A DNA stretch of 64,000 nt from Alphaproteobacteria bacterium (GCA_965200095.1 OZ241350.1:1912215-1976214); one strand, 5' to 3'; numbered from the stretch's first letter, positions 12,286 through 57,388 are shown. The notes: generated by a model not told the origin, from the letters alone. Numbers and translations: made by a program.

Positions 12286-12385
12286 GGCGCTGCATATGCC
12301 TTGCCGCGCGCGCCGACGCAAGGGAACTGCGGCTCTCATTACGGCGGCGGACGCTTCCCCTTAAGCGCCGGGGCGCGCGGGGCGG

Positions 12386-18853: not shown

Positions 18854-19337
18854 CGCTTGCCTCCCCGCATCGTCGCGTCCTCGCACCGGCGCAGAATATA
18901 CTTTCCCGCTCCGGAGTTTGCGGCGAGCGCGGCCGGATGCGCGATTTCGGACACGCCCGCGACAAGATCCGAAGCCCCGCCGGTCCTTCCCGCCCGGACC
19001 CGCGCCGGCGGGCCGGACGGCGCCCGACGATGACGCCCATGCGCCCGATGCCGCCCATTGGGCACAGGAAGCGGTTCGCCTTCTTCGGCGAGGTCGACGA
19101 ACGGACCGACTCCGGCGCGTTTCGGCGCCGTTGCCTTCACGGCGGACGATTGGTCGTCCAGGTCCCGCGGATACTCGCCTCGAAACGGTTCTTGCGGTGC
19201 GCCGCCATGTCCATGAGAACCCGGCGAAGGCTTTCAATGCGGCGCGGCGGACAGGTGGCGATGGTCGCCGAGAGGAAATTTGCGCCGCCGCCGTATAATG
19301 AAAACCGCCGGTCGTCCGCCGGCGCGGGGGAGCGAGA

Positions 19338-22194: not shown

Positions 22195-22322
22195 GACGCT
22201 CCCCGACGTCGCGTTTTCCGTGCCGTTCCGCAGATCATGGCGCGCCGGAACCTGCCGCACCGCCGGGCGGCTGTCCAGCGCGCCCTTGAACGGCAATTCT
22301 CGTTTTGGCGACGGCAAAGGCC

Positions 22323-22350
22323 CTTGAAACGCCGCGTCGGCGCCCCATAT
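22323..22350 (+). promoter_or_regulatory. sigma-32 (RpoH) heat-shock promoter
   Basis: CTTGAAA, 13 nt, then CCCCATAT. This matches the sigma32 consensus CTTGAAA-N13-15-CCCCATNT, about 100 nt upstream of hsp20. Confidence 0.55.
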
Positions 22351-26238: not shown

Positions 26239-26510
26239 GTCGCGTCGCCCCCGCCGTCGGTCGCTTGCCGCCCGCGGTTCCGGCGAACCGGAAAGGGAGG
26301 CCGCCGCACTCTATGAAAGCGCCCCGGCCGTGGCAACGGACTGTCCCGGTTCGCCGGCGACGCTCGCTACGGCGATGGACGTCGCTCCCGGGGGGCGACC
26401 GCGACCGGTTCGCTGCGCCGTAGCGAAGGCCATCGCCGGATGCTTGCGGACGTGGCGGCGCGCAACCGGGGATGATACAGGTCATCGGCGCCTGCGCAGG
26501 GGAAACCGCG

Positions 26511-26981
26511 ATGTCGGATATCGACTACGAAGCCGCGACGCTGACCATCCGCGAATGGACGCTATGGGTTGCCGCTGCGTCGCTGGTCGTTTCCGCCGTC
26601 GTCGGCGGTCTCCAGTGTTTTCTTATCTGGCGCGGTCTTGTCATCATGCGCCGCGCTGCCGACACGCGCGACCGGGCGCTTGAGAACCAGCGCCGCGAAT
26701 CCGACCAGCGCCACGCCGAAGCCATGAAGGCGGGCGCGGAACGCCATGCCGAAGCCATGCAGGCCAGCTCCGACGCCATGAAGGCCGGCGCCGAACGCCA
26801 CGCCGAGGCCATGAAGGCGAGCGCCGACGCCATGAAGGCCGGCGCCGAACGCCACGCCGAGAACATGGCGGCGCTCGGGGCGCAATCCCGCGCCCTCGAC
26901 GCTCTCATCGAGGGGCATCGCGCGCAGACCGCCAGCCTCGAAACCCTGATCGAACGCACCGCGCCGGGGGCGGGCCGGTAA
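26511..26981 (+). CDS. membrane-anchored repeat protein (N-terminal TM, then 11-residue AMKAGAERHAE repeats), copy 1
   Basis: MSDIDYEAATLTIREW, then TM segment LWVAAASLVVSAVVGGLQCFLIW, then HAEAMKAGAER-type repeats. No family recognised. Confidence 0.5.
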   Translation: MSDIDYEAATLTIREWTLWVAAASLVVSAVVGGLQCFLIWRGLVIMRRAADTRDRALENQRRESDQRHAEAMKAGAERHAEAMQASSDAMKAGAERHAEAMKASADAMKAGAERHAENMAALGAQSRALDALIEGHRAQTASLETLIERTAPGAGR

Positions 26982-27338
26982 CCGGAGCGGCCGGCCGCGC
27001 CATTGTCGAATCCGCGCGTCGCCAGGCGGATTCCGGGTGCGACGATGTCGGCGCGCAAGGCGGCAGCGCCCGTGTCGAGGTCCGTCTCTGTGGCGAGCGC
27101 GTCGAACGGAAGCCGCTCCGTTCATGCGACGACAGCCCGAGGGTCGCCGGCAAGCCGGTGCGCCCGCGTTCGGGAACGGAGCCGGCGGCGCTCGCTACGG
27201 CGATGGACGTCGCTCCCGGGGGGCGACCGCGACCGGTTCGCTGCGCCGTAGCGAAGGCCATCGCCGGATGCTTGCGGACGTGGCGGCGCGCAACCGGGGA
27301 TGATACAGGTCATCGGCGCCTGCGCAGGGGAAACCGCG

Positions 27339-27863
27339 ATGTCGGATATCGACTACGAAGCCGCGACGCTGACCATCCGCGAGTGGACGCTGTGGGTCGC
27401 CGCTGCGTCGCTGGTCGTTTCCGCCGTCGTCGGCGGTCTCCAGTGTTTTCTTATCTGGCGCGGTCTCGTCATCATGCGCCGCGCTGCCGACACGCGCGAC
27501 CGGGCGCTTGAGAACCAGCGCCGCGAATCCGACCAGCGCCACGCCGAAGCCATGAGGGCCGGCGCGGAACGCCACGCCGAAGCCATGAAGGCCAGCTCCG
27601 ACGCCATGAAGGCCGGCGCGGAACGCCACGCCGAAGCCATGCAGGCGAGCGCCGACGCCATGAAGGCCGGCGCCGAACGCCATGCCGAAGCCATGCAGGC
27701 GAGCGCCGACGCCATGAAGGCCGGCGCCGAACGCCACGCCGAGAACATGGCGGCGCTCGGAGCGCAATCCCGCGCGCTCGACGCTCTCATCGAGGGGAAC
27801 CGCGCGCAGACCGCCAGCCTCGAAACCCTGATCGAACGCACCGCGCCGGGAGCGAGCCGGTAA
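27339..27863 (+). CDS. membrane-anchored repeat protein, copy 2 (one extra repeat block)
   Basis: Near-identical paralog of 26511..26981 with an additional RHAEAMQASADAMKAGAE block. Confidence 0.5.
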   Translation: MSDIDYEAATLTIREWTLWVAAASLVVSAVVGGLQCFLIWRGLVIMRRAADTRDRALENQRRESDQRHAEAMRAGAERHAEAMKASSDAMKAGAERHAEAMQASADAMKAGAERHAEAMQASADAMKAGAERHAENMAALGAQSRALDALIEGNRAQTASLETLIERTAPGASR

Positions 27864-27908
27864 CCGGAGCGATCGGCCGCGCCATCGTCAAGCCCGCGCC
27901 GGCGCCAT

Positions 27909-28000
27909 CGGCAATTCTCATTTTGGCCCATGGCGCCGCGGCGGGTTGGTTGCGGTCGCTCCCAGGGGGCAACGTCCATCGCCAAAACGAGAATCGATGC
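27909..28000. mobile_element. MITE-like element with terminal inverted repeats GGCAATTCTCATTTTGGC / GCCAAAACGAGAATCG
   Basis: Same family as the element at 56383-56465. A partial copy lies at 22289-22310 and a right-end copy at 28151-28167. Confidence 0.55.
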
Positions 28001-28189
28001 GCCGCCATGTCAAGGCCGGCGCGGGTCGGCGAGACGCCCCCGCATCCGCCGGGGCAGGCTCGCTCCCGAGGATAACCGAAGCCGATCCGCCGTGTCGCAG
28101 TAAAGCCCGTCGCCGGATGCTCATCGAGCTGGAGGCGCGTCGCCGCAGCCCGAAACGAGAATCGCCGCAACCCCGGGGCGTCGGGCGGC

Positions 28190-29446
28190 TCAGGTCGCCG
28201 GGCGGACCAGAACGTGTCGCTTGCGGCCCGCCGATAATTTGATCGTCCCGTCCGCCGAAACGTCCGCATCGCTCACCGTCCGCTCTTCCGACGCGATCGC
28301 GACGCCGTTCACGCGGGCGCCGCCGCCGCGGATCAGGCGCCGCGCCTCGGCGTTCGACGCGCACAGGCCGGCGATGCGGAAGAGCCGGAAGGCGGTCACG
28401 CCGGCCGCGAGTTCGGCCCGGTCCACGGCGACCGAGGGGAGGGCGTCGCCATGCGCGCCGTCGTCGAACGTCCGCCGCGCCGTTTCCGCCGCCGCCCGCG
28501 CCGCGTCCGCGCCGTGGCGCAAGGTCGTCGCCGCGTCGGCGAGGGTTTTCTTGGCCTCGTTGATCTCGCGTCCCTCCAGCCGCTCGAGCTGCGCGATCTC
28601 CTCAAGCGGCAGGTCGGTGAACAGGCGCAGGAAGCGGCCCACGTCGGAATCCTCGGTGTTGCGCCAGAACTGCCAGTAGTCCCAGGGCGACAGGCGGTCG
28701 GCGTTGAGCCATACGGCGCCCTCGGCCGTCTTGCCCATCTTGGCGCCGGAAGCGGTCTCGATCAGCGGCGCCGTAAGGCCGAACAGCGCCCGGCCGTCGA
28801 CCCGTCTCGCGAGTTCGACGCCGGCGACGATGTTCCCCCACTGGTCCGACCCGCCCATCTGCAGCACGCAGCCGCGCCGCCGCGCCAGTTCGAGGAAATC
28901 GTAAGCCTGGAGCACCATATAGTTGAATTCGAGGAAACTGAGCGGCTGTTCGCGGTCGAGACGCCGCTTCACCGAGTCCGACGCCAACATGCGGTTGACC
29001 GAGAAGAACCGCCCGTAATCGCGCAAAAAATCAAGATAATCCAGATTCGCAAGCCAGTCCGCATTATCGACCAGAACGGCGTCCGACGGCCCGTCTCCGA
29101 ATTTCAGAAACGACTCGAATATCCCCTGTATAGAGCGTTTGTTCTTTTCGATAATTTCGTCGGACAGCATCTGCCGCGACGAATCGCGCCCCGACGGGTC
29201 GCCGATCCGCGTGGTGCCGCCGCCGAGCAGCACGATCGGCTTGTGGCCGGTCTGTTGCAGCCGCCGCAGAAGCATGATCTGCACCAGGCTGCCGACGTGG
29301 AGGCTGTCGGCGGTGGCGTCGAATCCGATATATGCGGTGATCGCCCCGTCGGCGGCGGCGCGGTCCAGGGAGTCGATATGGGTGCACTGATGCACATACC
29401 CCCGCGCCGTCAGCGCGCGGAGGAACGCGGATCGCGGTTCGGGCAT
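28190..29446 (-). CDS. tyrS: tyrosine--tRNA ligase
   Basis: HVGSL (HIGH-type) and KMGKT (KMSKS) motifs. C-terminal S4-like domain. Confidence 0.9.
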
Positions 29447-45715: not shown

Positions 45716-48700
45716 ATGATCCGCCGGGCCTGCGGGCTGCTGGCGCTGGCCTTCCTCGCCGCCGCGGCTCTTGCCGTCTTCCCTCGCACGGCAGAGGCGG
45801 TGTGCACCGTTAACGCCGCCACGTCGACCGAGGTAAATTTCAGAGCCTCGGCGATAACCTCCAGTTCAATCACGTTTTCGTGGAATCGGCCGTCATGCGC
45901 CAGCGGCGCCGTCTCATGGCGTGTTACCGGGGCCACCCTGACCGGCGGCGGCAACTGCTGCAGTCATGTGTATGCAGACGGTGGGACCATTTCCTCTTCG
46001 ACCGCGTCCGCGCTTGGATGGACGAAGACCGGGCTGAACGCCAATACGACCTACCACTGGCGGGTGCGTATCGACCAGCCGATCACCGAGCGATCCGACT
46101 TCTTCCCCCATAATGCCCGACTGAGCGTCACGACCAAACAGGCGTCGCCGGGGACTCCGGGCGGCGTGACGGTGACGCCGGGGGTAGGCCAGCTCGCCGT
46201 CTCCTGGACCGCCGCAACCAATGCCGGCGGCTACAAGGTGCAGTGGAAATCCGGTTCGCAAGCTTACGACGCCGCGCGTCAGGCGACAGTCGGCAGCGGA
46301 ACGAGCCACACCATTACGAGCCTGACCGCGGGGACCGTATACACCGTGCGGGTCATCGCGACGCGGACCAACGCCGACGACGGACCCGCCTCCGCAGAGC
46401 GGACCGGAACGCCCAAATACTCGCCGCCGGGGACTCCGGGCGGCGTGACAGTGACGCCGGGGGTAGGCCAGCTCGCCGTCTCCTGGACCGCCGCAACCAA
46501 TGCCGGCGGCTACAAGGTGCAGTGGAAGTCCGGCGCGCAGGCTTACGACGCCGCGCGTCAGGCGACAGTCGGCAGCGGAACGAGCCACACCATTACGAGC
46601 CTGACCGCGGGGACCGCATACACCGTGCGGGTCATCGCTACGCGGACCAACGCCGACGACGGACCCGCCTCCGCAGAGCGAACCGGAACCCCGAAGGCTG
46701 CGCCGCCGGGGACTCCGGGCGGCGTGACGGTGACGCCGGGGGTGGGCCAGCTCGCCGTCTCCTGGACCGCCGCAACCAATGCCGGCGGCTACAAGGTGCA
46801 GTGGAAATCCGGTTCGCAAGCATACGACGCCGCGCGTCAGGCGACAGTCGGGAGCGGAACGAGCCATGCTATTACCGGCCTCACCGCAGGGACCGAATAC
46901 ACCGTCCGGGTCATCGCGACGCGGAGCAATGCCGACGACGGACCCGCCTCCGCAGAGCGAACCGGAACCCCGAAGGCTGCGCCGCCGGGGACTCCGGGCG
47001 GCGTAACGGTGACGCCGGGAGTGGGCCAGCTTGCCGTCTCCTGGACCGCCGCGGCCAATGCCGACGGCTACAAGGTGCAGTGGAAATCCGGCTCGCAGAC
47101 TTACGACGCCGCGCGTCAGGCGACAGTCGGCAGCGGAACGAGCCACGCCATTACCGGCTTGAGCGCGGGGACCGAATACGCCGTGCGGGTCGTCGCGACG
47201 CGAAGCAATGCCGACGACGGACCCGCCTCCGCAGAGCGAACCGGAACGCCGAGGGCCGCGCCGTCGGGGGCGCCGGGCGGTGTGACGGTGACGCCGGGGG
47301 CGGGCCGGCTCGCCGTCTCCTGGACCGCCGTGACCGGCGCCGACGGCTACAAGGTGCAGTGGAAATCCGGCGCGCAGACTTACGATGCCGCGCGTCAGGC
47401 GACAGTCGGCGGCAGCACGAGCCACACTATCACCGGCCTCGCCGCGGGAACCGAATACACCGTGCGGGTCATCGCGACGCGAACCGACGCCGACGACGGA
47501 CCCGCCTCCGCAGAGCGAACCGGAACGCCCAAACAATCGCCGCCGGGGGCGCCGGGCGACGTAACGGTGACGCCGGAGGTGGGCCGGCTCGCCGTCTCCT
47601 GGACCGCCGCGACCGATGCCGACGGCTACAAGGTGCAGTGGAAATCCGGCTCGCAGACTTACGACGCCGCGCGTCAGGCGACGGTCGGCAGCGGAACGAG
47701 CCATGCCATTACCGGTCTGACCGCGGGGACCGAATACACCGTGCGGGTCATCGCGACGCGCAGCAACGCCGACGACGGACCCGCCTCCACAGAGCAAACC
47801 GGAACGCCGACGACAGGCAGGATCGATCTGTCGGCGCCGACTCTCGCCGTGACGGCGGGCGGCGCCGGGGAGACCTACACGGTGGTTCTGGGCGCAGCGC
47901 CGGATGGCGACGTCACCGTCGCAATAGCGAGCGACAACGGCGATGTGACGGCGACTCCCGACAGCCTCTCCTTCACGGCGTCGGACTGGAGCGCGCCGCA
48001 GACGGTGACGTTAACTGCGGCGGCGGACGATGACGGCTACGCCGATATGGCGTCGCTGACGCATACGGCGTCGGGCGGCGGTTACGACGGGGTGACGGGG
48101 ACGCTGCCCGTGGCGGTGACGGGCGACAGCAAGGTGAGGGTGGGCGGCGCGGGCGAGACGGTCTACCGGATCCGCGGTCGGACGGTGACGGTGGCGGTGA
48201 TGCCCGGCACGCCGGCGGGCATTGAGATCGACCTTGCGGACCTGCCCGAAGCGCCTTCGGGCGAGGCTCTGACGCTGACCTTCGCGCCTGTGGCGTCTCC
48301 GGCGGCGAGCGACGCTTTCGCCTTCGGGCCGCCGGAGTCGCGGACCGTTGTGGATGTGACGGTGACGGCGGGGCGCGTTTCGTCTCCGGGTCTGCGTCTG
48401 TGCCTTCCGGTTGCGGATGCGGCGCGGGATGCGGCGCGGGGTCGTCCGTTGCTGTTGCTGCGTTACGACGGCAGCGCCTGGGGCGCGGTCGCCGGGTCTG
48501 CGGCGAGCGCGGACGGGTCGCTTGTGTGCGCCGATGGCGTGTCGTCGTTTTCGCCGTTTGCGGTTGGGTATGCGGACACGGCGCCGTCGTTTGCGGCGGA
48601 TGCGGCCATCGCGGCGCTGGCGTTCACGGCGGGCGAGGCCATTGAGCCTGTGACCTTGCCTGCGGCGACGGGGGGCGACGGGACGTTCTACGAGCTGGGT

Positions 48701-50269
48701 CCGCGGCCATTGGCGCTGCCGCCGGGTCTGGATATCGACGATGCGACGCGGGTTCTTTCGGGGACGCCGACGGAGGCGTTCGCGCAGCGTCGCTACACAT
48801 GGACGGCGACGGACATCGACGGGGAGAGCGATACGCTGTCGTTCACGATGGAGGTGCTGCCGGCGCTTGCGGCGGCGCGGGAGCGTTTGCGGGCGGTGAA
48901 CGAGTCGGTTCTGCCGGAGTTGTCGCGGGCGATGTGGGGGAGCGTCATCGATGCGCTGACGGGGCGCCTTGAGAGCGCGGGTCTTTCGGTCGGCGACGGC
49001 GCGGGCGTCGCGGCGTCGGGTCTTGCGGGGGCTTCGGAGTTCCTGCGGTCGAACGATGGCGCGCCTGGGGCGGGTTCTGGTTCGTGGCGGGAGTTGCTGG
49101 CGGGCGAATCCTTCGTGCTGGGCGTGGGTTCGGAAGCGGGCGGCGGCGGCGGCGGTTCGCCGGTAATGGTCTGGGGTTCGGGGGACTGGCGCAAACTGTC
49201 GCTGGACGATGCGGTTCTGGACTGGTCCGGGGAGTTGCTCTCGGCGCATGCGGGGGTGGATGCGCGGCTTGGCGGGAGTGTTCGCGGCGGCGTTGCGGCG
49301 TCATGGTTCGAGAGTGAGATCGACTACACGGATCGCAGCGGCGAGGCGGCGGTTTCGGGCGTTCACGAGAGCCGGCTGCCGGCGGTGCATCCCTGGGCGG
49401 GGTGGTTCGGCTCGGACGGCTCGCGTCTGTGGGGGGTGCTGGGCTATGGCGAGGGCGAGGTCGAGATAGCGGATGCGGACCTTGCGGAGCGTTTCGGGGT
49501 CCAGAAGAGCGACAGCGCGTTTCTGGCGGCGGCGGCGGGGGGTTCGGTTCCGGTTGCGTCGTCCGGCGTGTTTGCGCTTGCGCTGAAGGGTTCGGGGGAG
49601 GCGACGCGCTATTCGGTGGAGGACAACGGCGCGGCGATTGCGGCGGTGTCTGTGGACACGCAGCGGTTGCGGCTGTCTGCGACGGGCAGCCGGCGCTGGG
49701 TTCTGGCGGACGGCGGGACGCTTACGCCGTCGCTGGAGGCGGGGGCGCGCTGGGACGGCGGCGACGGGGAGACGGGCGCAGGCGTGGAGTTGGGGGGCGG
49801 CGTGGAGTGGACGCTTCCGTCGCATGGCCTGGCGGTTGCGGCGCGGGGCCGGACGCTGGCGGCCCATGCGGGCGCTGCGGAGGAATGGGGCGTGTCGGGT
49901 TCGGCGCGGCTTTCGCCGCCCGGCGGGCGCGGTCTGTCTCTGGCGCTGTCGCCGCGCTGGGGGGCTTCGGACAGCGGCCTGTCGCGTCTGTGGGACGAGG
50001 GCGTTGCGGGGCGCGGGTCTCCGGTCGGCGGAAGCGACGCGGGCGCGGCGGGTCTGGAGGCGGAGTTGGGCTACGGGTTCCGCGAGGGGGCCGGTCTGCT
50101 GACGCCGTCTGCGGGGTTCGGCTACGGGGACGGCGGCGCGCGGCGCTGGCTGGTGGGAACGCGGTTCGAGCTCGGCCCGGCGCTTGCGGTCTCGGTGGCG
50201 ACCGAACGCCGCGACGGCGCCGCCGACGCCGGACACGCCCTCCGCATCGACCTGCGCATGAACTGGTAG
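45716..50269 (+). CDS. giant secreted repeat protein A (1517 aa): signal peptide, 7 FN3-like domains, Calx-beta/cadherin-like and He_PIG-like domains, C-terminal autotransporter-like beta-barrel
   Basis: Signal peptide MIRRACGLLALAFLAAAALAVFPRTAEA. FN3-like units of ~93 aa ending YTVRVIATR. Calx-like segment VTVAIASDNGDVTATPDSLSFTASDW. Helical linker LPALAAARERLRAVNESVLPEL. C-terminus LRIDLRMNW shows an alternating hydrophobic pattern and a terminal Trp. Confidence 0.8.
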   Translation: MIRRACGLLALAFLAAAALAVFPRTAEAVCTVNAATSTEVNFRASAITSSSITFSWNRPSCASGAVSWRVTGATLTGGGNCCSHVYADGGTISSSTASALGWTKTGLNANTTYHWRVRIDQPITERSDFFPHNARLSVTTKQASPGTPGGVTVTPGVGQLAVSWTAATNAGGYKVQWKSGSQAYDAARQATVGSGTSHTITSLTAGTVYTVRVIATRTNADDGPASAERTGTPKYSPPGTPGGVTVTPGVGQLAVSWTAATNAGGYKVQWKSGAQAYDAARQATVGSGTSHTITSLTAGTAYTVRVIATRTNADDGPASAERTGTPKAAPPGTPGGVTVTPGVGQLAVSWTAATNAGGYKVQWKSGSQAYDAARQATVGSGTSHAITGLTAGTEYTVRVIATRSNADDGPASAERTGTPKAAPPGTPGGVTVTPGVGQLAVSWTAAANADGYKVQWKSGSQTYDAARQATVGSGTSHAITGLSAGTEYAVRVVATRSNADDGPASAERTGTPRAAPSGAPGGVTVTPGAGRLAVSWTAVTGADGYKVQWKSGAQTYDAARQATVGGSTSHTITGLAAGTEYTVRVIATRTDADDGPASAERTGTPKQSPPGAPGDVTVTPEVGRLAVSWTAATDADGYKVQWKSGSQTYDAARQATVGSGTSHAITGLTAGTEYTVRVIATRSNADDGPASTEQTGTPTTGRIDLSAPTLAVTAGGAGETYTVVLGAAPDGDVTVAIASDNGDVTATPDSLSFTASDWSAPQTVTLTAAADDDGYADMASLTHTASGGGYDGVTGTLPVAVTGDSKVRVGGAGETVYRIRGRTVTVAVMPGTPAGIEIDLADLPEAPSGEALTLTFAPVASPAASDAFAFGPPESRTVVDVTVTAGRVSSPGLRLCLPVADAARDAARGRPLLLLRYDGSAWGAVAGSAASADGSLVCADGVSSFSPFAVGYADTAPSFAADAAIAALAFTAGEAIEPVTLPAATGGDGTFYELGPRPLALPPGLDIDDATRVLSGTPTEAFAQRRYTWTATDIDGESDTLSFTMEVLPALAAARERLRAVNESVLPELSRAMWGSVIDALTGRLESAGLSVGDGAGVAASGLAGASEFLRSNDGAPGAGSGSWRELLAGESFVLGVGSEAGGGGGGSPVMVWGSGDWRKLSLDDAVLDWSGELLSAHAGVDARLGGSVRGGVAASWFESEIDYTDRSGEAAVSGVHESRLPAVHPWAGWFGSDGSRLWGVLGYGEGEVEIADADLAERFGVQKSDSAFLAAAAGGSVPVASSGVFALALKGSGEATRYSVEDNGAAIAAVSVDTQRLRLSATGSRRWVLADGGTLTPSLEAGARWDGGDGETGAGVELGGGVEWTLPSHGLAVAARGRTLAAHAGAAEEWGVSGSARLSPPGGRGLSLALSPRWGASDSGLSRLWDEGVAGRGSPVGGSDAGAAGLEAELGYGFREGAGLLTPSAGFGYGDGGARRWLVGTRFELGPALAVSVATERRDGAADAGHALRIDLRMNW
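46141..47820 (+). repeat. six near-perfect 279-bp tandem repeats (one FN3-like domain each) inside adhesin A
   Basis: Repeat starts at about 46147, 46426, 46705, 46984, 47263 and 47542. Identity drifts only slightly between copies. Confidence 0.85.
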
Positions 50270-50344
50270 CGACCGGCGCGCGCGGCGACGGCGCGGGTGC
50301 GCGATACGACCGACGGGAAATCGAGGCGGCGCCGGGCGCGCGCC

Positions 50345-50614
50345 CTACACGACGCCGAACAGGCGCGCGGCCATCGCCAGAACGATCGCGAACATGAAGC
50401 CGAGCACCCACTTGACGGCCCACAATTCCGCCTTGACGGCGCCGATGTCACCCTTGAGTTCGGCTCTGAGTTCGGCGATGTCGCCCTTGGTGGCGACGCC
50501 CTCGCTCACCGCCTTGCGCACGGTTATGGCGATGGCCTTGGCTTGCGGCTCGGGCAGACCCGTGCGGGTCAAGGCCTCGGCCGCCTCCAGCGTGTCGAAC
50601 AACTCAGTGGACAT
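50345..50614 (-). CDS. DUF1640-like coiled-coil protein with C-terminal TM anchor, copy 1 (89 aa; two 11-mer repeats)
   Basis: MSTELFDTLEAAEALTRTGLPEPQAKAIAITVRKAV ... KGDIAELRAELKGDIGAVKAEL ... WVLGFMFAIVLAMAARLFGVV matches the DUF1640 N-terminus, 11-mer repeats and terminal TM. The start was trimmed from ORF 50345..50683. Confidence 0.6.
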   Translation of the reverse strand: MSTELFDTLEAAEALTRTGLPEPQAKAIAITVRKAVSEGVATKGDIAELRAELKGDIGAVKAELWAVKWVLGFMFAIVLAMAARLFGVV

Positions 50615-50644
50615 GCCGCGTCTTCTACGCCCGGTATCGGGGAC

Positions 50645-50673
50645 TGTCAAGCCGCCTGCGCTCACGGCGCAGG
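50645..50673 (-). promoter_or_regulatory. candidate promoter (-35 TTGACA) with an abutting inverted-repeat operator CCTGCGCTCACGGCGCAGG upstream of DUF1640 copy 1
   Basis: On the minus strand: palindrome, TTGACA, 17 nt, TAGAAG, 7 nt, ATG. There is no SD. Repeated upstream of copies 2 and 3. Confidence 0.4.
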
Positions 50674-50990
50674 GCAATCGCACTTGGGCGTCATTTTGGG
50701 TTGGGGTTTAGGGGTTTTGGTTGAGCGGATCGTGTCGAGGAGGAAGTTGTTGTCCCATCCGGCGCGCTTGAGTTTTCCTCGCATGGCGTCTTTTCCGGGT
50801 TCGATGCGCGCGACGTTCAGGGCCATGCGGCGCAGCAGTGCGAGGTTCTCCGGCCCATTCCCGGTGCGGTTGCGCTGCCGATCCTCGTTCATGGTCACGT
50901 CCAATACCCAATGCAACGAGTTCCCGATCGCCCAATGGCCGCGCACCGCGTGCCGGAAGCGCTCCGGGGAGAGTTCGGCGCCCATGATGT
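50662..50990 (-). pseudogene. ISAs1/IS4-like transposase C-terminal fragment
   Basis: HWAIGNSLHWVLDVTMNEDRQRNRTGNGPENLALLRRMALN matches the conserved DDE-transposase C-terminus. The upstream catalytic part is missing. Confidence 0.5.
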
Positions 50991-51387
50991 AGTAGCGCGT
51001 CTCGGTTGTCGTCCCGGTTCGGGTCTCGATGCGCCCGCGGCTGCCGTAGGTGTCTCGATGGCGCCGTCGGCCCGCATCCCCTGCGCCGGGCTGTCCGGGT
51101 AGAGTTTCGAGTCTCCTCTCACGGTCGCCCGTGCCCCCTGTTTCCATGATGGCGCTTGCGATGGCGACGCCGCTATCGGTCGGTCATGGAAATCGGGCGG
51201 CGGTTGCTTTCCGGCAGCGTCCGGGTTGCCGTAGCGAACGGCGTTGTCGATGCGTCTTGACATGCGGTCGAAATCGGGTTACCGGTGCGGGCCATAATTC
51301 ATGAAGGTGGGGGCGATGGATGTCGGTAATCTCTCGGCCGGAACGCGGCGGCGAACCGGACGCCGGTTTACGATGTCGCCCCTGAAT

Positions 51388-51428: not shown

Positions 51429-54400
51429 TTGGCTTTTCTGTTCGTCGCAGCGGCGCAGCCGGCCGTCGCGGCGGAGTGGATCCATAGCCCGTCTCCGGCG
51501 ATCCTGTATAAAAGCAGCCTGAATAACGCGCAAGTTTATTTGGCGCTGGATGGAAACTCGCCCCGTTTCAAAGTCACCAGCGATCTGAATACAAACAGAA
51601 GCACCTGGTTCGCCTTGTCGGGCGTCCCCAGCGGGGTCACTCTCTCGGTCAGCGCCGTTGTCGGTCAAACCTCGCCGCATCAGGGCGCCTTGTTGACGTT
51701 GAGCTATAGCGGCAATTTCACCAGCGACTGGGTCCTTACGATCACGGTCCCTTCGGCGGCCTTCTTCACAAGGGCGCGCCAGGTGGTCTACACGATCCCG
51801 GTGCAGACGGACAATACGAAAAGCCTGTGGACGGGGGCAGTATCGGGCCAGGCGACGGAAGCCGGGGGACAGGCGACGTTCCCGGTGCGGCTGCGGGCGG
51901 CGCCTTCGCAGGACGTAACCGTGACGGTAACGAGCCGGGATACGGGCGAGGGCTCGGTATCGCCGTCCACGCTCACCTTCAGCTCTTCGAATTGGCACAC
52001 GCCGCAGACTGTGACGGTGACCGGCGTGGACGATAACGTGGACGACGGCACTCAAAACTGGAACGTCCGCCTCGATCCGTCGAGCGCCGATACGACCTAT
52101 AACGGCCTGACGAACGTGGACGTGGCGGTAACCACCACGGACAATGACGCCCTACCGACGGCGACGCTGTCGCTGAGCCAGTCTTCGATTTCCGAGAACG
52201 GCGGTTCTGCGACAGTGACCGCGGCGCTCTCGCATCCGTCGAGTGGGGCGACGGCGCTGACGGTGGCGGCTTCGCCGGGTTCGGGGACGGATTTCACACA
52301 GACGGGAACGACGCTGAACATCGCTGCGGGGGCGACGAGCAGCACCGGAACGGTGACCATCGCAGCAACCAACAATAGCGTCGACGCGCCGGACAAGAGC
52401 GTGACGGTCTCGGCGACGGCGAGCGGGGCCAGCAACGTCGCGAACCCGTCGTCGGTGACGCTGACGCTGACGGACGACGAGGCGGCGCCGACGGCGACGC
52501 TGGCGTTGTCGAACAATTCGATTCCGGAGAACGGCGGGACATCGACGGTGAGCGCGACGCTGTCGCACGCCTCCAGCGCGTCTTCGACGATCACCGTTTC
52601 GACGGGGACGGGGTTCACCCTGGGTTCGGCGACGACGTTGAATATCGCGGCGGGAGCGACGAGCAGCAGCGGGACGGTGACGCTCACGGCGGATAACGAC
52701 AACGTGCATTCGGGAGACCGGTCGGTCACGGTGACGGGTTCGATGGCGAACACCCAGGGCGCGGGTTCCGTGACGGGGGCTTCGTTGACGATCGAGGAAG
52801 ACGAGGCGTTGCCGACGGCGACGCTGGCGTTGTCGCGTTCGAGCATCGACGAGAGCGGGGCGGACGGCGGTTCGACGGTGACCGCCGGCCTGAGCGGCGC
52901 GTCGAGCGAAGCGACGGTGCTGACGGTGTCGACGTCTCCGGGCGCCGACACGGTCGCAGGCGACTTCACGCAGTCGGGAACGGTGCTGACCATTGCGGCG
53001 GGGGAGACGTCCAGCACCGGCGCGGTGACGATCGCGGCCGTGGACAACGATGCCGACACGCCGAACAAGAGCGTGACGGTCTCGGCGACGGCGGCCGGAG
53101 GCAACGGCGTCGCGGATCCGTCCCCCCTGACGCTGACAGTGACGGACGATGAGGGGCCGCCGACGGTGACGCTGTCGCTGTCGCCGCCGTCGATCGACGA
53201 GAACGGGGGCGTGACGCGGGTGTCGGCGACGCTCTCGCGCCCGTCGGCCGTGGAGACGACGGTAACGGTGTCGGCGTCCCCGGGCGCTGACGCGGTTGCA
53301 GGCGACTTCGCCCTGAGTTCGAACAAGACGCTGACCATCGCCGCGGGAGCGACGACCGGCGCCGGAACGGTGACGATCGCGGCCGTGGACAATGATGTCG
53401 ACGCGCCGGACAAGAGCGTGACGGTTTCGGGCGCGGCGTCGAACGCTGTGGCCGAGGCTGCCGGGCAGACCGTGGCCGTGACCGGAGCGACGCTGACGGT
53501 GACGGACGACGACGAGACGGGGATGCTCATCGCGCCGTCGTCGCTCGTCGCGGAAGCGGGCGGCGCCGGGACGGAGTACACGGTCGTACTCGCCAGCGAG
53601 CCCGTCGGCGACGTGACGGTGGCGATAGCGAGCGACTCGGCGGAAGTGACGGTCAGCCCCGACAGTCTTGTCTTCACGGCGTCGGACTGGAGCGCGCCGC
53701 AGACGGTGACGTTAACCGCAGCGGCGGACGATGACGGTTACGCCGATGCGGCGTCGCTGACGCATACGGCGTCGGGCGGCGGTTACGACGGGGTGACGGG
53801 GACGCTGCCCGTGGCGGTGACGGGCGACAGCAAGGTGAGGGTGGGCGGCGCGGGCGAGACGGTTTACCGGATCCGCGGTCGGACGGTGACGGTGGCGGTG
53901 ATGCCCGGCACGCCGGCGGGCATTGAGATCGACCTTGCGGACCTGCCCGAAGCGCCTTCGGGCGAGGCTCTGACGCTGACCTTCGCGCCTGTGGCGTCTC
54001 CGGCGGCGAGCGACGCTTTCGCCTTCGGGCCGCCGGAGTCGCGGACCGTTGTGGATGTGACGGTGACGGCGGGGCGCGTTTCGTCTCCGGGTCTGCGTCT
54101 GTGCCTTCCGGTTGCGGATGCGGCGCGGGATGCGGCGCGGGGTCGTCCGTTGCTGTTGCTGCGTTACAACGGCGACGCCTGGGGCGCGGTCGCCGGGTCT
54201 GCGGCGAGCGCGGACGGGTCGCTTGTGTGCGCCGATGGCGTGTCGTCGTTTTCGCCGTTTGCGGTTGGGTATGCGGACACGGCGCCGTCGTTTGCGGCGG
54301 ATGCGGCCATCGCGGCGCTGGCGTTCACGGCGGGCGAGGCCATTGAGCCTGTGACCCTGCCTGCGGCGACGGGGGGCGACTGGACGATCCACGAGCTGGG

Positions 54401-55970
54401 TCCCCGGCCATTGGCGCTGCCGCCGGGTCTGGGTTTCGACCGTGACACGCGGGTTCTTTCGGGGACTCCGACGGAGGCGTTCGCGCAGCGTCGCTACACA
54501 TGGACGGCGACGGACATCGATGGGGAGAGCGATACGCTGTCGTTCACGATGGAGGTGCTGCCGGCGCTTGCGGCGGCGCGGGAGCGTTTGCGGGCGGTGA
54601 ACGAGTCGGTTCTGCCGGAGTTGTCGCGGGCGATGTGGGGGAGCGTCATCGATGCGCTGACGGGGCGCCTTGAGAGCGCGGGTCTTTCGGTCGGCGACGG
54701 CGCGGGCGTCGCGGCGTCGGGTCTTGCGGGGGCTTCGGAGTTCCTGCGGTCGAACGATGGCGCGCCTGGGGCGGGTTCTGGTTCGTGGCGGGAGTTGCTG
54801 GCGGGCGAATCCTTCGTGCTGGGCGTGGGTTCGGAAGCGGGCGGCGGCGGCGGCGGTTCGCCGGTAATGGTCTGGGGTTCGGGGGACTGGCGCAAACTGT
54901 CGCTGGACGATGCGGTTCTGGACTGGTCCGGGGAGTTGCTCTCGGCGCATGCGGGGGTGGATGCGCGGCTTGGCGGGAGTGTTCGCGGCGGCGTTGCGGC
55001 GTCATGGTTCGAGAGTGAGATCGACTACACGGATCGCAGCGGCGAGGCGGCGGTTTCGGGCGTTCACGAGAGCCGGCTGCCGGCGGTGCATCCCTGGGCG
55101 GGGTGGTTCGGCTCGGACGGCTCGCGTCTGTGGGGGGTGCTGGGCTATGGCGAGGGCGAGGTCGAGATAGCGGATGCGGACCTTGCGGAGCGTTTCGGGG
55201 TCCAGAAGAGCGACAGCGCGTTTCTGGCGGCGGCGGCGGGGGGTTCGGTTCCGGTTGCGTCGTCCGGCGTGTTTGCGCTTGCGCTGAAGGGTTCGGGGGA
55301 GGCGACGCGCTATTCGGTGGAGGACAACGGCGCGGCGATTGCGGCGGTGTCTGTGGACACGCAGCGGTTGCGGCTGTCTGCGACGGGCAGCCGGCGCTGG
55401 GTTCTGGCGGACGGCGGGACGCTTACGCCGTCGCTGGAGGCGGGGGCGCGCTGGGACGGCGGCGACGGGGAGACGGGCGCAGGCGTGGAGTTGGGGGGCG
55501 GCGTGGAGTGGACGCTTCCGTCGCATGGCCTGGCGGTTGCGGCGCGGGGCCGGACGCTGGCGGCCCATGCGGGCGCTGCGGAGGAATGGGGCGTGTCGGG
55601 TTCGGCGCGGCTTTCGCCGCCCGGCGGGCGCGGTCTGTCTCTGGCGCTGTCGCCGCGCTGGGGGGCTTCGGACAGCGGCCTGTCGCGTCTGTGGGACGAG
55701 GGCGTTGCGGGGCGCGGGTCTCCGGTCGGCGGAAGCGACGCGGGCGCGGCGGGTCTGGAGGCGGAGTTGGGCTACGGGTTCCGCGAGGGGGCCGGTCTGC
55801 TGACGCCGTCTGCGGGGTTCGGCTACGGGGACGGCGGCGCGCGGCGCTGGCTGGTGGGAACGCGGTTCGACCTCGGCCCGGCGCTTGCGGTCTCGGTGGC
55901 GACCGAACGCCGCGACGGCGCCGCCGACGCCGGACACGCCCTCCGCATCGACCTGCGCATGAACTGGTAG
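51429..55970 (+). CDS. giant secreted repeat protein B (about 1513 aa from TTG): 5 Calx-beta-like domains plus the shared Calx/He_PIG/linker/beta-barrel module; apparently phase-OFF
   Basis: Calx-beta-like units [25 protein letters not shown]...NIAAGATSSTGTVTIAA...DKSVTVSATA. The last ~900 aa are near-identical to protein A and end LRIDLRMNW. The in-frame ORF begins only at TTG 51429, in the middle of a signal-peptide h-region. The ATG at 51373 (MSPLN-polyP) is out of frame by one C. Confidence 0.75.
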   Translation: MAFLFVAAAQPAVAAEWIHSPSPAILYKSSLNNAQVYLALDGNSPRFKVTSDLNTNRSTWFALSGVPSGVTLSVSAVVGQTSPHQGALLTLSYSGNFTSDWVLTITVPSAAFFTRARQVVYTIPVQTDNTKSLWTGAVSGQATEAGGQATFPVRLRAAPSQDVTVTVTSRDTGEGSVSPSTLTFSSSNWHTPQTVTVTGVDDNVDDGTQNWNVRLDPSSADTTYNGLTNVDVAVTTTDNDALPTATLSLSQSSISENGGSATVTAALSHPSSGATALTVAASPGSGTDFTQTGTTLNIAAGATSSTGTVTIAATNNSVDAPDKSVTVSATASGASNVANPSSVTLTLTDDEAAPTATLALSNNSIPENGGTSTVSATLSHASSASSTITVSTGTGFTLGSATTLNIAAGATSSSGTVTLTADNDNVHSGDRSVTVTGSMANTQGAGSVTGASLTIEEDEALPTATLALSRSSIDESGADGGSTVTAGLSGASSEATVLTVSTSPGADTVAGDFTQSGTVLTIAAGETSSTGAVTIAAVDNDADTPNKSVTVSATAAGGNGVADPSPLTLTVTDDEGPPTVTLSLSPPSIDENGGVTRVSATLSRPSAVETTVTVSASPGADAVAGDFALSSNKTLTIAAGATTGAGTVTIAAVDNDVDAPDKSVTVSGAASNAVAEAAGQTVAVTGATLTVTDDDETGMLIAPSSLVAEAGGAGTEYTVVLASEPVGDVTVAIASDSAEVTVSPDSLVFTASDWSAPQTVTLTAAADDDGYADAASLTHTASGGGYDGVTGTLPVAVTGDSKVRVGGAGETVYRIRGRTVTVAVMPGTPAGIEIDLADLPEAPSGEALTLTFAPVASPAASDAFAFGPPESRTVVDVTVTAGRVSSPGLRLCLPVADAARDAARGRPLLLLRYNGDAWGAVAGSAASADGSLVCADGVSSFSPFAVGYADTAPSFAADAAIAALAFTAGEAIEPVTLPAATGGDWTIHELGPRPLALPPGLGFDRDTRVLSGTPTEAFAQRRYTWTATDIDGESDTLSFTMEVLPALAAARERLRAVNESVLPELSRAMWGSVIDALTGRLESAGLSVGDGAGVAASGLAGASEFLRSNDGAPGAGSGSWRELLAGESFVLGVGSEAGGGGGGSPVMVWGSGDWRKLSLDDAVLDWSGELLSAHAGVDARLGGSVRGGVAASWFESEIDYTDRSGEAAVSGVHESRLPAVHPWAGWFGSDGSRLWGVLGYGEGEVEIADADLAERFGVQKSDSAFLAAAAGGSVPVASSGVFALALKGSGEATRYSVEDNGAAIAAVSVDTQRLRLSATGSRRWVLADGGTLTPSLEAGARWDGGDGETGAGVELGGGVEWTLPSHGLAVAARGRTLAAHAGAAEEWGVSGSARLSPPGGRGLSLALSPRWGASDSGLSRLWDEGVAGRGSPVGGSDAGAAGLEAELGYGFREGAGLLTPSAGFGYGDGGARRWLVGTRFDLGPALAVSVATERRDGAADAGHALRIDLRMNW

Positions 55971-56390
55971 CGGCCGACCCGCAAGGCGGGTGTGCGATAC
56001 GACCGACGGGAAATCGATGCGGCGCCGGGCGCGCGCCCTACACGACGCCGAACAGGCGCGCGGCCATCGCCAGAACGATCGCGAACATGAAGCCGAGCAC
56101 CCACTTGACGGCCCACAATTCCGCCTTGACGGCGCCGATGTCACCCTTGAGTTCGGCCCTGAGTTCGGCGATGTCGCCCTTGAGTTCGGCTCTGAGTTCG
56201 CTGATGTCGCCCTTGGTGGCGACGCCCTCGCTCACCGCCTTGCGCACGGTTATGGCGATGGCCTTGGCTTGCGGCTCGGGCAGACCCGTGCGGGTCAAGG
56301 CCTCGGCCGCCTCCAGCGTGTCGAACAACTCAGTGGACATGCCGCGTCTTCTACGCCCGGTATCGGGGACTGTCAAGCCGCCAGCAATTC
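53670..56390. repeat. segmental duplication copy 2
   Basis: See 47970-50690. Confidence 0.85.
56038..56340 (-). CDS. DUF1640-like protein, copy 2 (100 aa; three 11-mer repeats)
   Basis: Same N- and C-termini as copy 1. Has KGDISELRAELKGDIAELRAELKGDIGAVKAEL. Confidence 0.6.
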   Translation of the reverse strand: MSTELFDTLEAAEALTRTGLPEPQAKAIAITVRKAVSEGVATKGDISELRAELKGDIAELRAELKGDIGAVKAELWAVKWVLGFMFAIVLAMAARLFGVV

Positions 56391-56465
56391 TCATTTTGGC
56401 CCATAGCGATGCGGCGGACCTGTCGCTCCCAGGAAGGCGCGTCCATCGCCATAATGAGAATCGCC
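56383..56465. mobile_element. 83-bp MITE-like insertion flanked by an 11-bp target-site duplication GTCAAGCCGCC
   Basis: AGCAATTCTCATTTTGGCC...CCATAATGAGAATCGCC has inverted termini. It splits the promoter/operator sequence that is intact upstream of copy 1. The direct repeat GTCAAGCCGCC is at 56372-56382 and 56467-56477. Confidence 0.65.
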
Positions 56466-56569
56466 GGTCAAGCCGCCTGCGCTCCCGGCGCAGGGCAATC
56501 GACCCGCAAGGCGGCGGCGCGGTGTGCGATACGACCGACGGGAAATCGAGGCGGCGCCGGGCGCGCGCC

Positions 56570-56980
56570 CTACACGACGCCGAACAGACGCGCGGCCATC
56601 GCCAGAATGATCGCGAACATGAAGCCGAGCACCCACTTGACGGCCCACAATTCCGCCTTGACGGCGCCGACCTCACCCCTGAGTTCGCCGATGTCGCCCT
56701 TGAGTTCGCCGATGTCGCCCTTGAGTTCGGTTCTGAGTTCGCCGATGTCGCCCTTGAGTTCGGTTCTGAGCTCGCCGATGTCACCCTTGAGTTCGGCCCT
56801 GAGCTCGCCGATATCGCCCTTGAGTTCGGTTCTGAGCTCGCCGACATCGCTCTTCGTGGCAACGCCCTCGCTCACCGCCTTGCGCACGGTTATGGCGATG
56901 GCCTTGGCTTGCGGCTCGGGCAGACCGGCGCGGGTCAAGGCCTCGGCCGCCTCCATGGTGTCGAACGACGTAGCGGACAT
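56570..56980 (-). CDS. DUF1640-like protein, copy 3 (136 aa; about seven 11-mer and 8-mer repeats)
   Basis: MSATSFDTMEAAEALTRAGLPEPQAKAIAITVRKAV, then GELRTELKGDI repeated with 33-bp DNA periodicity, then the same TM tail. Confidence 0.6.
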   Translation of the reverse strand: MSATSFDTMEAAEALTRAGLPEPQAKAIAITVRKAVSEGVATKSDVGELRTELKGDIGELRAELKGDIGELRTELKGDIGELRTELKGDIGELKGDIGELRGEVGAVKAELWAVKWVLGFMFAIILAMAARLFGVV

Positions 56981-57388
56981 GCCGCTTCGTCTACCCCCGG
57001 CATCGGAGACTGTCAAGCCGCTTGCGCTCCCGGCGGTTCCCGTCGCGGCGACCGGCGCCGCTCGCCGCATCCGGCAGGCGTCGGCGCGGCAGGCGGGCGC
57101 CCCGGCCGAACCGCCGGATTTTTTCACGCGGTCCTTCGCAGAACGAGCATATCGGAGCAACGACAACCCGTATCGAACCGGGGCGCCCGCTCATCCTGTC
57201 GTCGTCTCGCGACACCGCCGGAAGTCCGCTCGAACAGGCGAGCGCCGGGCCGTGACCGGCCCCCCCCCGAAAAATCCGGGCGTTATGCAGGAGTTCCGAC
57301 GCGCAATTCGCTCCCGGCTTGCGCCGGCGGCGAACGCCGCTATGCTGCGCGTTCTCCGATGCGGAAGCGACCCGCAAAAGGCATCCCC

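Follow-up and report, generated by a model that had tools for sequence, protein, structure and literature searches.

The DUF1640 locus and its insertion

We analysed a 64,000-nt stretch of the genome of an Alphaproteobacteria bacterium (GCA_965200095.1 OZ241350.1:1912215-1976214), hereafter the window, which carries three paralogous small genes, all on the minus strand and all matching Pfam family PF07798 (CCDC90-like, formerly DUF1640). The region upstream of the second gene (copy 2) holds a short insertion. This is very probably a non-coding MITE (miniature inverted-repeat transposable element) with the ends of insertion sequences (ISs) labelled ISNCY, which was mobilised in trans and inserted overlapping the TTGACA box of copy 2 in such a way that the putative promoter survives. 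The coordinates of all features are collected in Table 1.

The insertion is marked by an exact 11/11 direct repeat of GTCAAGCCGCC (56372-56382 and 56467-56477), and the 84 bp between the two repeats (56383-56466) start with AGCAATTCTCATTTTGGCC and finish with GCCATAATGAGAATCGCCG. Exact GTCAAGCCGCC is found three times in the window (the third time at 50646-50656), with a further copy at one mismatch at 57012-57022. Just inside the repeats, the 17-mer GCAATTCTCATTTTGGC (56384-56400) pairs with an inverted partner at 56448-56464 with two mismatches in 17 nt; over the canonical 19-nt ends the inverted match is 16/19. At up to three mismatches, the window holds five matches to GCAATTCTCATTTTGGC, where chance predicts 0.03: 56384(+), 56448(-), 27911(+), 27981(-) and 22293(+). 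A sequence-only reading of this locus had proposed a mobile element with inverted termini between two direct repeats; the exact repeat, the matching ends and the empty paralogous sites bear this out, and its coordinates and sequences were correct apart from an insert size of 83 bp, where the actual spacing between the repeats is 84 bp.

Neither the 85-bp element nor the second full copy in the window (91 bp) contains an open reading frame (ORF). As DNA, the element folds into a long hairpin (-17.7 to -19.7 kcal/mol, z-scores -2.3 to -2.7). Rfam gave no match in the whole window at the gathering score, nor any at E <= 1 over 56300-56580, and a structured-RNA reading was therefore dropped. Every structural feature of a MITE that could be tested was found: the element is small and non-coding, its inverted ends are shared with ISs, it is multi-copy in the window, and it has varying duplications together with empty sites. 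Its identification as a MITE is strongly supported.

The empty sites are provided by the other two paralogues. Copies 1 and 3 are uninterrupted, reading ...GACTGTCAAGCCGC(C/T)TGCGCTC..., and at exactly that point copy 2 is longer by 95 bases. The uninterrupted version of the site, previously noticed upstream of copy 1, is thus present there, with a further one at copy 3, and aligning the upstream regions of copies 1 and 2 places the 95 extra bases at the insertion point. Copies 1 and 2 lie in a 2.8-kb segmental duplication (47855-50656 and 53556-56382; 97-98% identical), and their homology reaches the insertion point and resumes past the insert for 24 bp (23/24). The paralogue that has diverged most is copy 3 (89% identical over gene and promoter region). 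A single gain in copy 2 is the more parsimonious history, as the alternative needs two exact losses.

Table 1. Features of the DUF1640 locus and related element copies, numbered from the first letter of the window
Feature	Position	Strand	Remarks
DUF1640 copy 1	50345-50614	-	89 aa; PF07798 below gathering score
DUF1640 / CCDC90-like copy 2, downstream of the insertion	56038-56340	-	100 aa; PF07798 26.7 bits, below the gathering score of 33.5
DUF1640 copy 3	56570-56980	-	136 aa; PF07798 36.6 bits, above gathering score
MITE, 85 bp	56382-56466		canonical ends CAGCAATT...ATCGCCG; non-coding; 84 bp (56383-56466) if the first C is target DNA
Terminal inverted repeat, A-end CAGCAATTCTCATTTTGGC	56382-56400	+	identical to ends of the 1422-bp IS at L081
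Terminal inverted repeat, B-end	56448-56466	-	reads CGGCGATTCTCATTATGGC on the minus strand; 16/19 against A-end
Target-site duplication, left copy GTCAAGCCGC	56372-56381		visible direct repeat extends to 56382 (11 bp)
Target-site duplication, right copy GTCAAGCCGC	56467-56476		visible direct repeat extends to 56477
Putative promoter of copy 2	56348-56376	-	TTGACA 56371-56376, 17-nt spacer, TAGAAG 56348-56353, 7 nt, ATG 56338-56340; leaderless-type layout; conservation judged by eye
Palindrome CCTGCGC-N5-GCGCAGG	56476-56494		only other window copy at 50655-50673; distance to the -35 is 95 bp greater than at copy 1
Empty paralogous site, copy 1	50646-50673		single GTCAAGCCGCC abutted by the palindrome (GTCAAGCCGCC, then TGCGCTCACGGCGCAGG); alignment of upstream regions
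Empty paralogous site, copy 3	57012-57022		GTCAAGCCGCT, one mismatch; alignment of upstream regions
Second full MITE copy, 91 bp	27909-27999		78% identical to the first; 9-bp flanks CGGCGCCAT (27900-27908) and CGCCGCCAT (28000-28008), 8/9
Solo-end remnant, 29 bp, CGGCAATTCTCGTTTTGGCGACGGCAAAG	22291-22319		perfect 9-bp duplication GCCCTTGAA (22282-22290 and 22320-22328)
Solo B-type end CCGAAACGAGAATCGCCG	28150-28168	+	direct reading and profile search
Decayed MITE upstream of a small membrane-protein gene	26355-26440	-	terminus 22/27 against canonical end; nhmmer E = 2.9e-6
Decayed MITE, tandem duplicate of the 26355-26440 copy	27183-27268	-	nhmmer E = 9.7e-6
Possible decayed copy, weak	12327-12385	-	E = 0.05
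Possible decayed copy, weak	19228-19310	+	E = 0.055

Length of the target-site duplication

With canonical termini of the form CA...(T/C)G (here CA and CG, respectively), the element begins one base inside the visible repeat and the duplication, GTCAAGCCGC, is 10 bp. On these termini the eleventh identical base of the direct repeat is the element's own terminal C, and the duplication previously given as 11 bp is real but slightly over-read in length. The length at this site is ambiguous between 9 and 11 bp, as 9 bp plus a chance match also fits.

We scored the duplications of 14 paired copies in other genomes at the canonical termini CAGCAATT...AATTGCTG. A perfect 9/9 duplication was present at the canonical junction in 10 of the 14; among the others, one was perfect at a 1-nt offset, two matched at 7-8 of nine positions and two had no repeat. 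Counting the offset copy, 11 of the 14 foreign copies are perfect, compared with about 2.6/9 on average for shifted controls. The duplicated sequence differs at every copy. Because foreign copies carry their own, differing duplications, the direct repeat is target DNA and not a part of the element. A full-length IS copy in Nostoc is flanked by 10 identical bases. The consensus of 16 duplications has a faint nTnGnCnAn symmetry, which is unconvincing.

Other copies in the window

We searched the 64 kb with an nhmmer profile built from both full copies and also read the sequence directly. The family is represented by two full and two clearly decayed copies, together with two solo ends and two weak candidates. 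This includes all the related copies that the sequence-only reading had named, one of them at full length and two as single ends.

The solo-end remnant lies upstream of hsp20 and has lost all but one end while keeping both copies of its duplication. This duplication, GCCCTTGAA, includes the -35 of a sigma-32-type promoter (CTTGAAA-N16-CCCCATAT) and regenerates it. In a relative from another assembly (L170, 8880-8930), the orthologous region upstream of hsp20 has a single GCCCTTGAA and no insert. Since this site is empty, the hsp20 locus offers a direct comparison of filled and empty sites in this lineage, and it also shows the 9-bp duplication.

Parent insertion sequences

The end motif GCRATTCTCRTTTTGGC was scanned in one genome per species (596 Gb), a search in which we calculate that about 280 matches would occur by chance. 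More than 116 loci were found, and given this chance expectation single matches mean little. However, 16 pairs were in inverted orientation. Most of these had a spacing of 97-205 bp and came from Pseudomonadales, other Gammaproteobacteria, Verrucomicrobia and Acetobacteraceae. Two inverted pairs in a Competibacteraceae genome (L081 and L105) are 1.42 kb apart; these 1422-bp elements have one 451-aa ORF between their ends and a perfect 9-bp duplication each. A homologous transposase stands beside the same end in a Chromatiaceae metagenome-assembled genome (MAG; 57% identity), an alphaproteobacterial MAG (45%), a Nodosilinea cyanobacterium (53%), Contendobacter and other Gammaproteobacteria, so that loci with these ends beside homologous transposase genes comprise L081, L105, L017, L107, L113, L006, L094 and L118. 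The last of these is a 1641-bp element on Nostoc punctiforme plasmid pNPUN02, with ends GCAGCAATTCTCAT... and a 10-bp repeat. The parent group therefore consists of ISs of 1.42-1.64 kb with one DDE transposase of about 450 aa, ends CAGCAATTCTCAT... and a 9-bp (occasionally 10-bp) target duplication. The B-end and the left end of the ISs, which is the transposase-proximal one, are alike over about 30 nt (GGCGATGGACGCGC). As a deletion derivative of such an IS, the window element has kept only the ends.

Metagenomes contain over 7,900 homologues of the 451-aa transposase, usually on contigs about 1.5 kb long. Those few that are named are called 'ISNCY family transposase' by NCBI (including P0018, P0054, annotated plasmid copies). 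None of the NCBIfam ISNCY models matched the parent transposase at E <= 0.01, where IS4_2 was the sole, weak match, and none of the curated ISNCY, IS4, ISAs1 and IS701 NCBIfam models reached threshold. As no curated ISNCY model matched, the name rests on annotators' similarity rules. Membership of the IS4 family was not found either: the Pfam DDE_Tnp_1 match (18.5 bits) is below its cut-off of 23, and the IS4_2 match (16.9 bits) is far below its cut-off of 152. A search of the PDB returned no relative by sequence, and a literature search found no paper containing the end sequence. The parent is a DDE_Tnp_1-like IS from a poorly curated group.

The interiors of short elements from different genomes are unrelated, which indicates that MITEs arose repeatedly from this IS group. 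Their 19-22-nt end, CAGCAATTCTCATTTTGGCGAT, is near-invariant across Pseudomonadota (Gamma- and Alphaproteobacteria), Verrucomicrobiota and Cyanobacteria. This contrasts with the 45-57% identity of the transposases and the unrelated MITE interiors; such unusually strong conservation of IS ends suggests an unusually strong constraint on end recognition. When metagenomes were scanned with the subfamily-specific end ATTCTCRTTTTGGCCCAT, 47 loci came up, almost all of them by chance; the only real group was a different subfamily from peat and Acetobacteraceae, with no new copies of the window's subfamily. Searching plasmids with the Nostoc end returned only the Nostoc IS copies.

A transposase supplied in trans would bind both ends of the element and make a staggered cut of 9-10 nt in the target, directly upstream of the TTGACA box of copy 2 and overlapping it; repair of the gaps left by the stagger would then create the flanking direct repeat. 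Supply of the transposase in trans, staggered cutting and gap repair are the established scheme of DDE transposition.

Comparison with known elements

Several bacterial MITEs derive from DDE ISs, including Correia elements in Neisseria, RUP in Streptococcus pneumoniae and the MaeMITEs of Microcystis (reviewed in PMC3184786). Like these, the window family is small (85-91 bp), has no ORF, shares its inverted ends with ISs and duplicates its target; it is also intergenic beside promoters, capable of forming hairpins and represented by many partly decayed copies. It differs in its ends and its parent IS, and in duplicating 9-10 bp, where the Correia target duplication is TA. Compared with the 'ISNCY family' ISs themselves (1422 bp at L081 and L105, 1641 bp at L118), the terminal 13-22 nt are identical and the duplications are of similar size, at 9-10 bp, but the window element has lost the entire transposase gene.

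ISs of the ISAs1/IS4 type with a DDE_Tnp_1 domain are a further point of comparison. The parent transposase shares with them a DDE_Tnp_1-type catalytic region with a W-x-IEN motif, and one homologue has a precomputed PF13808 match. Target duplications of 8-12 bp, the range for these groups in the ISfinder family tables, are also common to both. The window itself contains a truncated ISAs1-family element ending in CA...TCATTTTGG (terminus CACTTGGGCGTCATTTTGGG), which has the CA and TCATTTTGG in common with the MITE end, although only about 11 of 19 positions match. This resemblance hints that the ISAs1 group and the MITE's transposase group may recognise related ends.

The Nezha MITE of Nostocales offers another lead. 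Nezha (Zhou et al. 2008, as summarised in PMC3184786) is 130-170 bp long and A+T-rich, compared with 85-91 bp for the window element, and shares its terminal inverted repeat and direct repeat with ISNpu3, described in that review as known only from Nostoc punctiforme. N. punctiforme also holds a homologue of the parent IS; a possible link is a lead only. For the IS subgroup, ISMae2 is likewise no more than a lead.

Putative promoter and displaced palindrome

On the gene strand, all three paralogues read TTGACA-N17-TAGA(A/C)G-N7-ATG. Two distant paralogues at L178 (60% protein identity, in another neighbourhood and with upstream flanks unrelated to those here) read TTGACA-N18-TAGGAG-N6-ATG and TTGCGG-N18-TAGTCT-N6-ATG. 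In every case 30 nt separate the first hexamer from the ATG, and the kept letters are TTG and TAG. From this conservation we infer that the motif is probably a -35/-10 pair whose mRNA is leaderless or nearly so; it is less easily read as a ribosome-binding site, as GGAG occurs in only one of the five paralogues.

The target duplication spans five of the six bases of the putative -35 (56372-56376) and restores them on the gene side. Because TTGAC is regenerated there, the putative core promoter (TTGACA-N17-TAGAAG-N7-ATG) is unbroken. Insertion would hence have kept a putative leaderless promoter while replacing everything upstream of -36. At copy 1 the palindrome ends 4 nt upstream of TTGACA; at copy 2 this 7-5-7 palindrome has been pushed 95 bp away, and its place, from about -37 to -54, is taken by the A/T-rich CCAAAATGAGAATTGCTG of the element, in a genome of 69% G+C. 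The sequence-only reading had the insertion splitting a promoter/operator and parting the -35 from its abutting palindrome. The displacement of the palindrome holds, but the core promoter is intact, with TTGACA itself regenerated beside the gene, and the operator role found no support. The palindrome was also considered as a classical terminator and rejected, having no T-run.

Could the insertion nevertheless be regulatory? If the palindrome were an operator or activator site, its shift by 95 bp and the A/T-rich element end brought to about -40 to -55 might uncouple copy 2 from that control, and the paralogues would differ in expression. The position of the palindrome against the -35 of copy 1, its restriction to these two loci in the window and its replacement by CCAAAATGAGAATTGCTG in so G+C-rich a genome are consistent with this, as are the presence of the filled allele in all sampled strains and its tandem duplication together with the gene in one of them (L176). 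However, copy 3, whose upstream region is without the distal arm of the palindrome, and the distant L178 paralogues, which are without the palindrome, share the core motif all the same; a related strain has an uncompensated single-nucleotide polymorphism (SNP) in the stem of the copy-1 palindrome; and a neutral insertion predicts retention of the element equally. We consider a regulatory insertion unlikely.

A bolder proposal is that the family prefers to land on, or to be retained at, the -35 boxes of promoters, acting as a portable upstream module. Readable duplications contain a -35 hexamer in two of three insertions in the window (TTGAC at DUF1640 copy 2 and CTTGAA at hsp20), both regenerated on the gene side. 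If true, the element would use its A/T-rich end, which can form a hairpin, to replace the sequence upstream of -36, rewiring the regulation of a paralogue and a stress gene with their promoters undestroyed. We regard such a preference as improbable.

Age and distribution among strains

Five further assemblies, from this organism or close relatives of it, also have the filled site at copy 2 (L001/L167, L168, L174, L176 and L177), each with a 229-bp spacer and 1-4 SNPs within the element. In L176, the unit of spacer plus gene is tandemly duplicated. The same filled site in independent assemblies and samples means that the insertion is not an assembly artefact. None of the five related assemblies has an empty allele, and no strain polymorphism was found at the site; as it is filled in all sampled relatives, the insertion is real, fixed and not very recent. 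It postdates the segmental duplication that made copies 1 and 2, and predates the split of the sampled strains.

The opposite polarity, in which an ancestral element stood at all DUF1640 promoters and copies 1 and 3 lost it by precise excision or by slippage between the 9-11 bp repeats, is very improbable. Short direct repeats do permit slippage that recreates an exact empty site, and the element is old enough to have SNPs between strains. Yet two independent exact losses would be needed in place of one gain, copy 3 is empty despite being the most diverged paralogue, no filled copy-1 site was found in any strain, and the copy-1 site in L169 is empty.

Weighing the evidence

Several observations weigh against an insertion by a trans-mobilised MITE that spares a promoter. 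The 64-kb window contains no transposase homologue; the two full copies are only 78% identical and most others are decayed, so the family may be extinct here. The repeat at the DUF1640 site is 10-11 bp, compared with the family norm of 9 bp, and two metagenomic copies (L138 and L158) are without a clean duplication. As to the promoter, a sigma-70 consensus scanner found none in 55900-57200, although this scanner accepts only a T as the final base of the -10; by E. coli rules, TAGAAG makes a poor -10; and one of the distant L178 paralogues reads TAGGAG there, possibly a ribosome-binding site.

A host structural or regulatory repeat (REP/BIME or RIME), small RNA or terminator hairpin spread by recombination, with the flanking repeat coincidental or part of the unit, is scarcely credible: its copies are intergenic, fold into a long hairpin and differ greatly in their interiors between genomes, but the flanking repeats differ for each copy and are single at empty paralogous and orthologous sites, the ends are shared with transposase-bearing elements, Rfam gave no match even at the relaxed threshold, and the hairpin z-score is that of any element with inverted ends. 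REP/BIME extragenic palindromes in particular, which are about 35 nt long and lack duplications and transposase-type ends, are ruled out by the target duplications and IS-type ends.

Neighbouring features

The DUF1640 paralogues are small duplicated membrane-protein genes. Their lengths vary by the number of 33-bp tandem repeats (11 aa, GDIxELRxELK), found at 56133-56215, at 56665-56844 and at the equivalent position in copy 1. DUF1640 proteins in the related strains L176 and L177 range from 111 to 196 aa, the repeat being a fast length-varying coiled-coil segment. Each arm of the segmental duplication contains the C-terminal 800 or so codons of a giant ORF and one DUF1640 gene. The two giant ORFs (45716-50269, 1517 aa, and 51429-55970, 1513 aa) have faint matches to fn3, Calx-beta and LapA, and their N-terminal halves differ. 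Past the resumed match upstream of copy 1, the locus enters the truncated ISAs1-family element mentioned above; the transposase fragment abutting the copy-1 upstream region (50681-51147) matches NF033564 with 95 bits over the C-terminal 70 or so aa of the model. Upstream of a distant DUF1640 paralogue at L178 (1230-1460) there are pieces resembling element ends (GCAGAATCGCC and AAAAAGGATTGCC), and element debris may be common beside DUF1640 genes.

Between tyrS and proS lies an 1853-bp insertion (26342-28194), located in the last 14 or so codons of tyrS, to which it gives a new stop; in the relatives L170-L173 (4885-5000) the two genes are 71 bp apart. Element-type ends at 26355 and 28168, both facing outward, form its boundaries, and it holds two tandem copies of a small transmembrane/coiled-coil gene (26472-26981 and 27300-27863) as well as the full MITE copy at 27909-27999. 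We rejected a reading of this insertion as one element carrying a duplication of its own, as the flanks of the two outward-facing ends differ. Also rejected was a transposon of 5.9 kb reaching from the end at 22291 to that at 28168: the interval holds conserved housekeeping genes (hsp20, lolCDE and proS) in the same order as in relatives. The 13-mer CRTCGCCGGATGC occurs exactly four times on the plus strand (22357, 26431, 27259 and 28108), always with element-related sequence no more than about 100 bp away. Allowing one mismatch gives seven matches against 1.6 expected, and at hsp20 it starts a hairpin in the 5' untranslated region.

Significance

The event described here is real but ordinary for bacterial mobile DNA, and the element is a new MITE of a known type. 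For the family, the CAGCAATTCTCATTTTGGCGAT-type end is a handy search key to a poorly curated IS group. In this organism, the insertion accounts for the 95-bp longer upstream region at one of three near-identical DUF1640 loci. Placed after the segmental duplication and before the divergence of the strains, it is also a dated marker, and gives a frame for comparing the expression of the paralogues.

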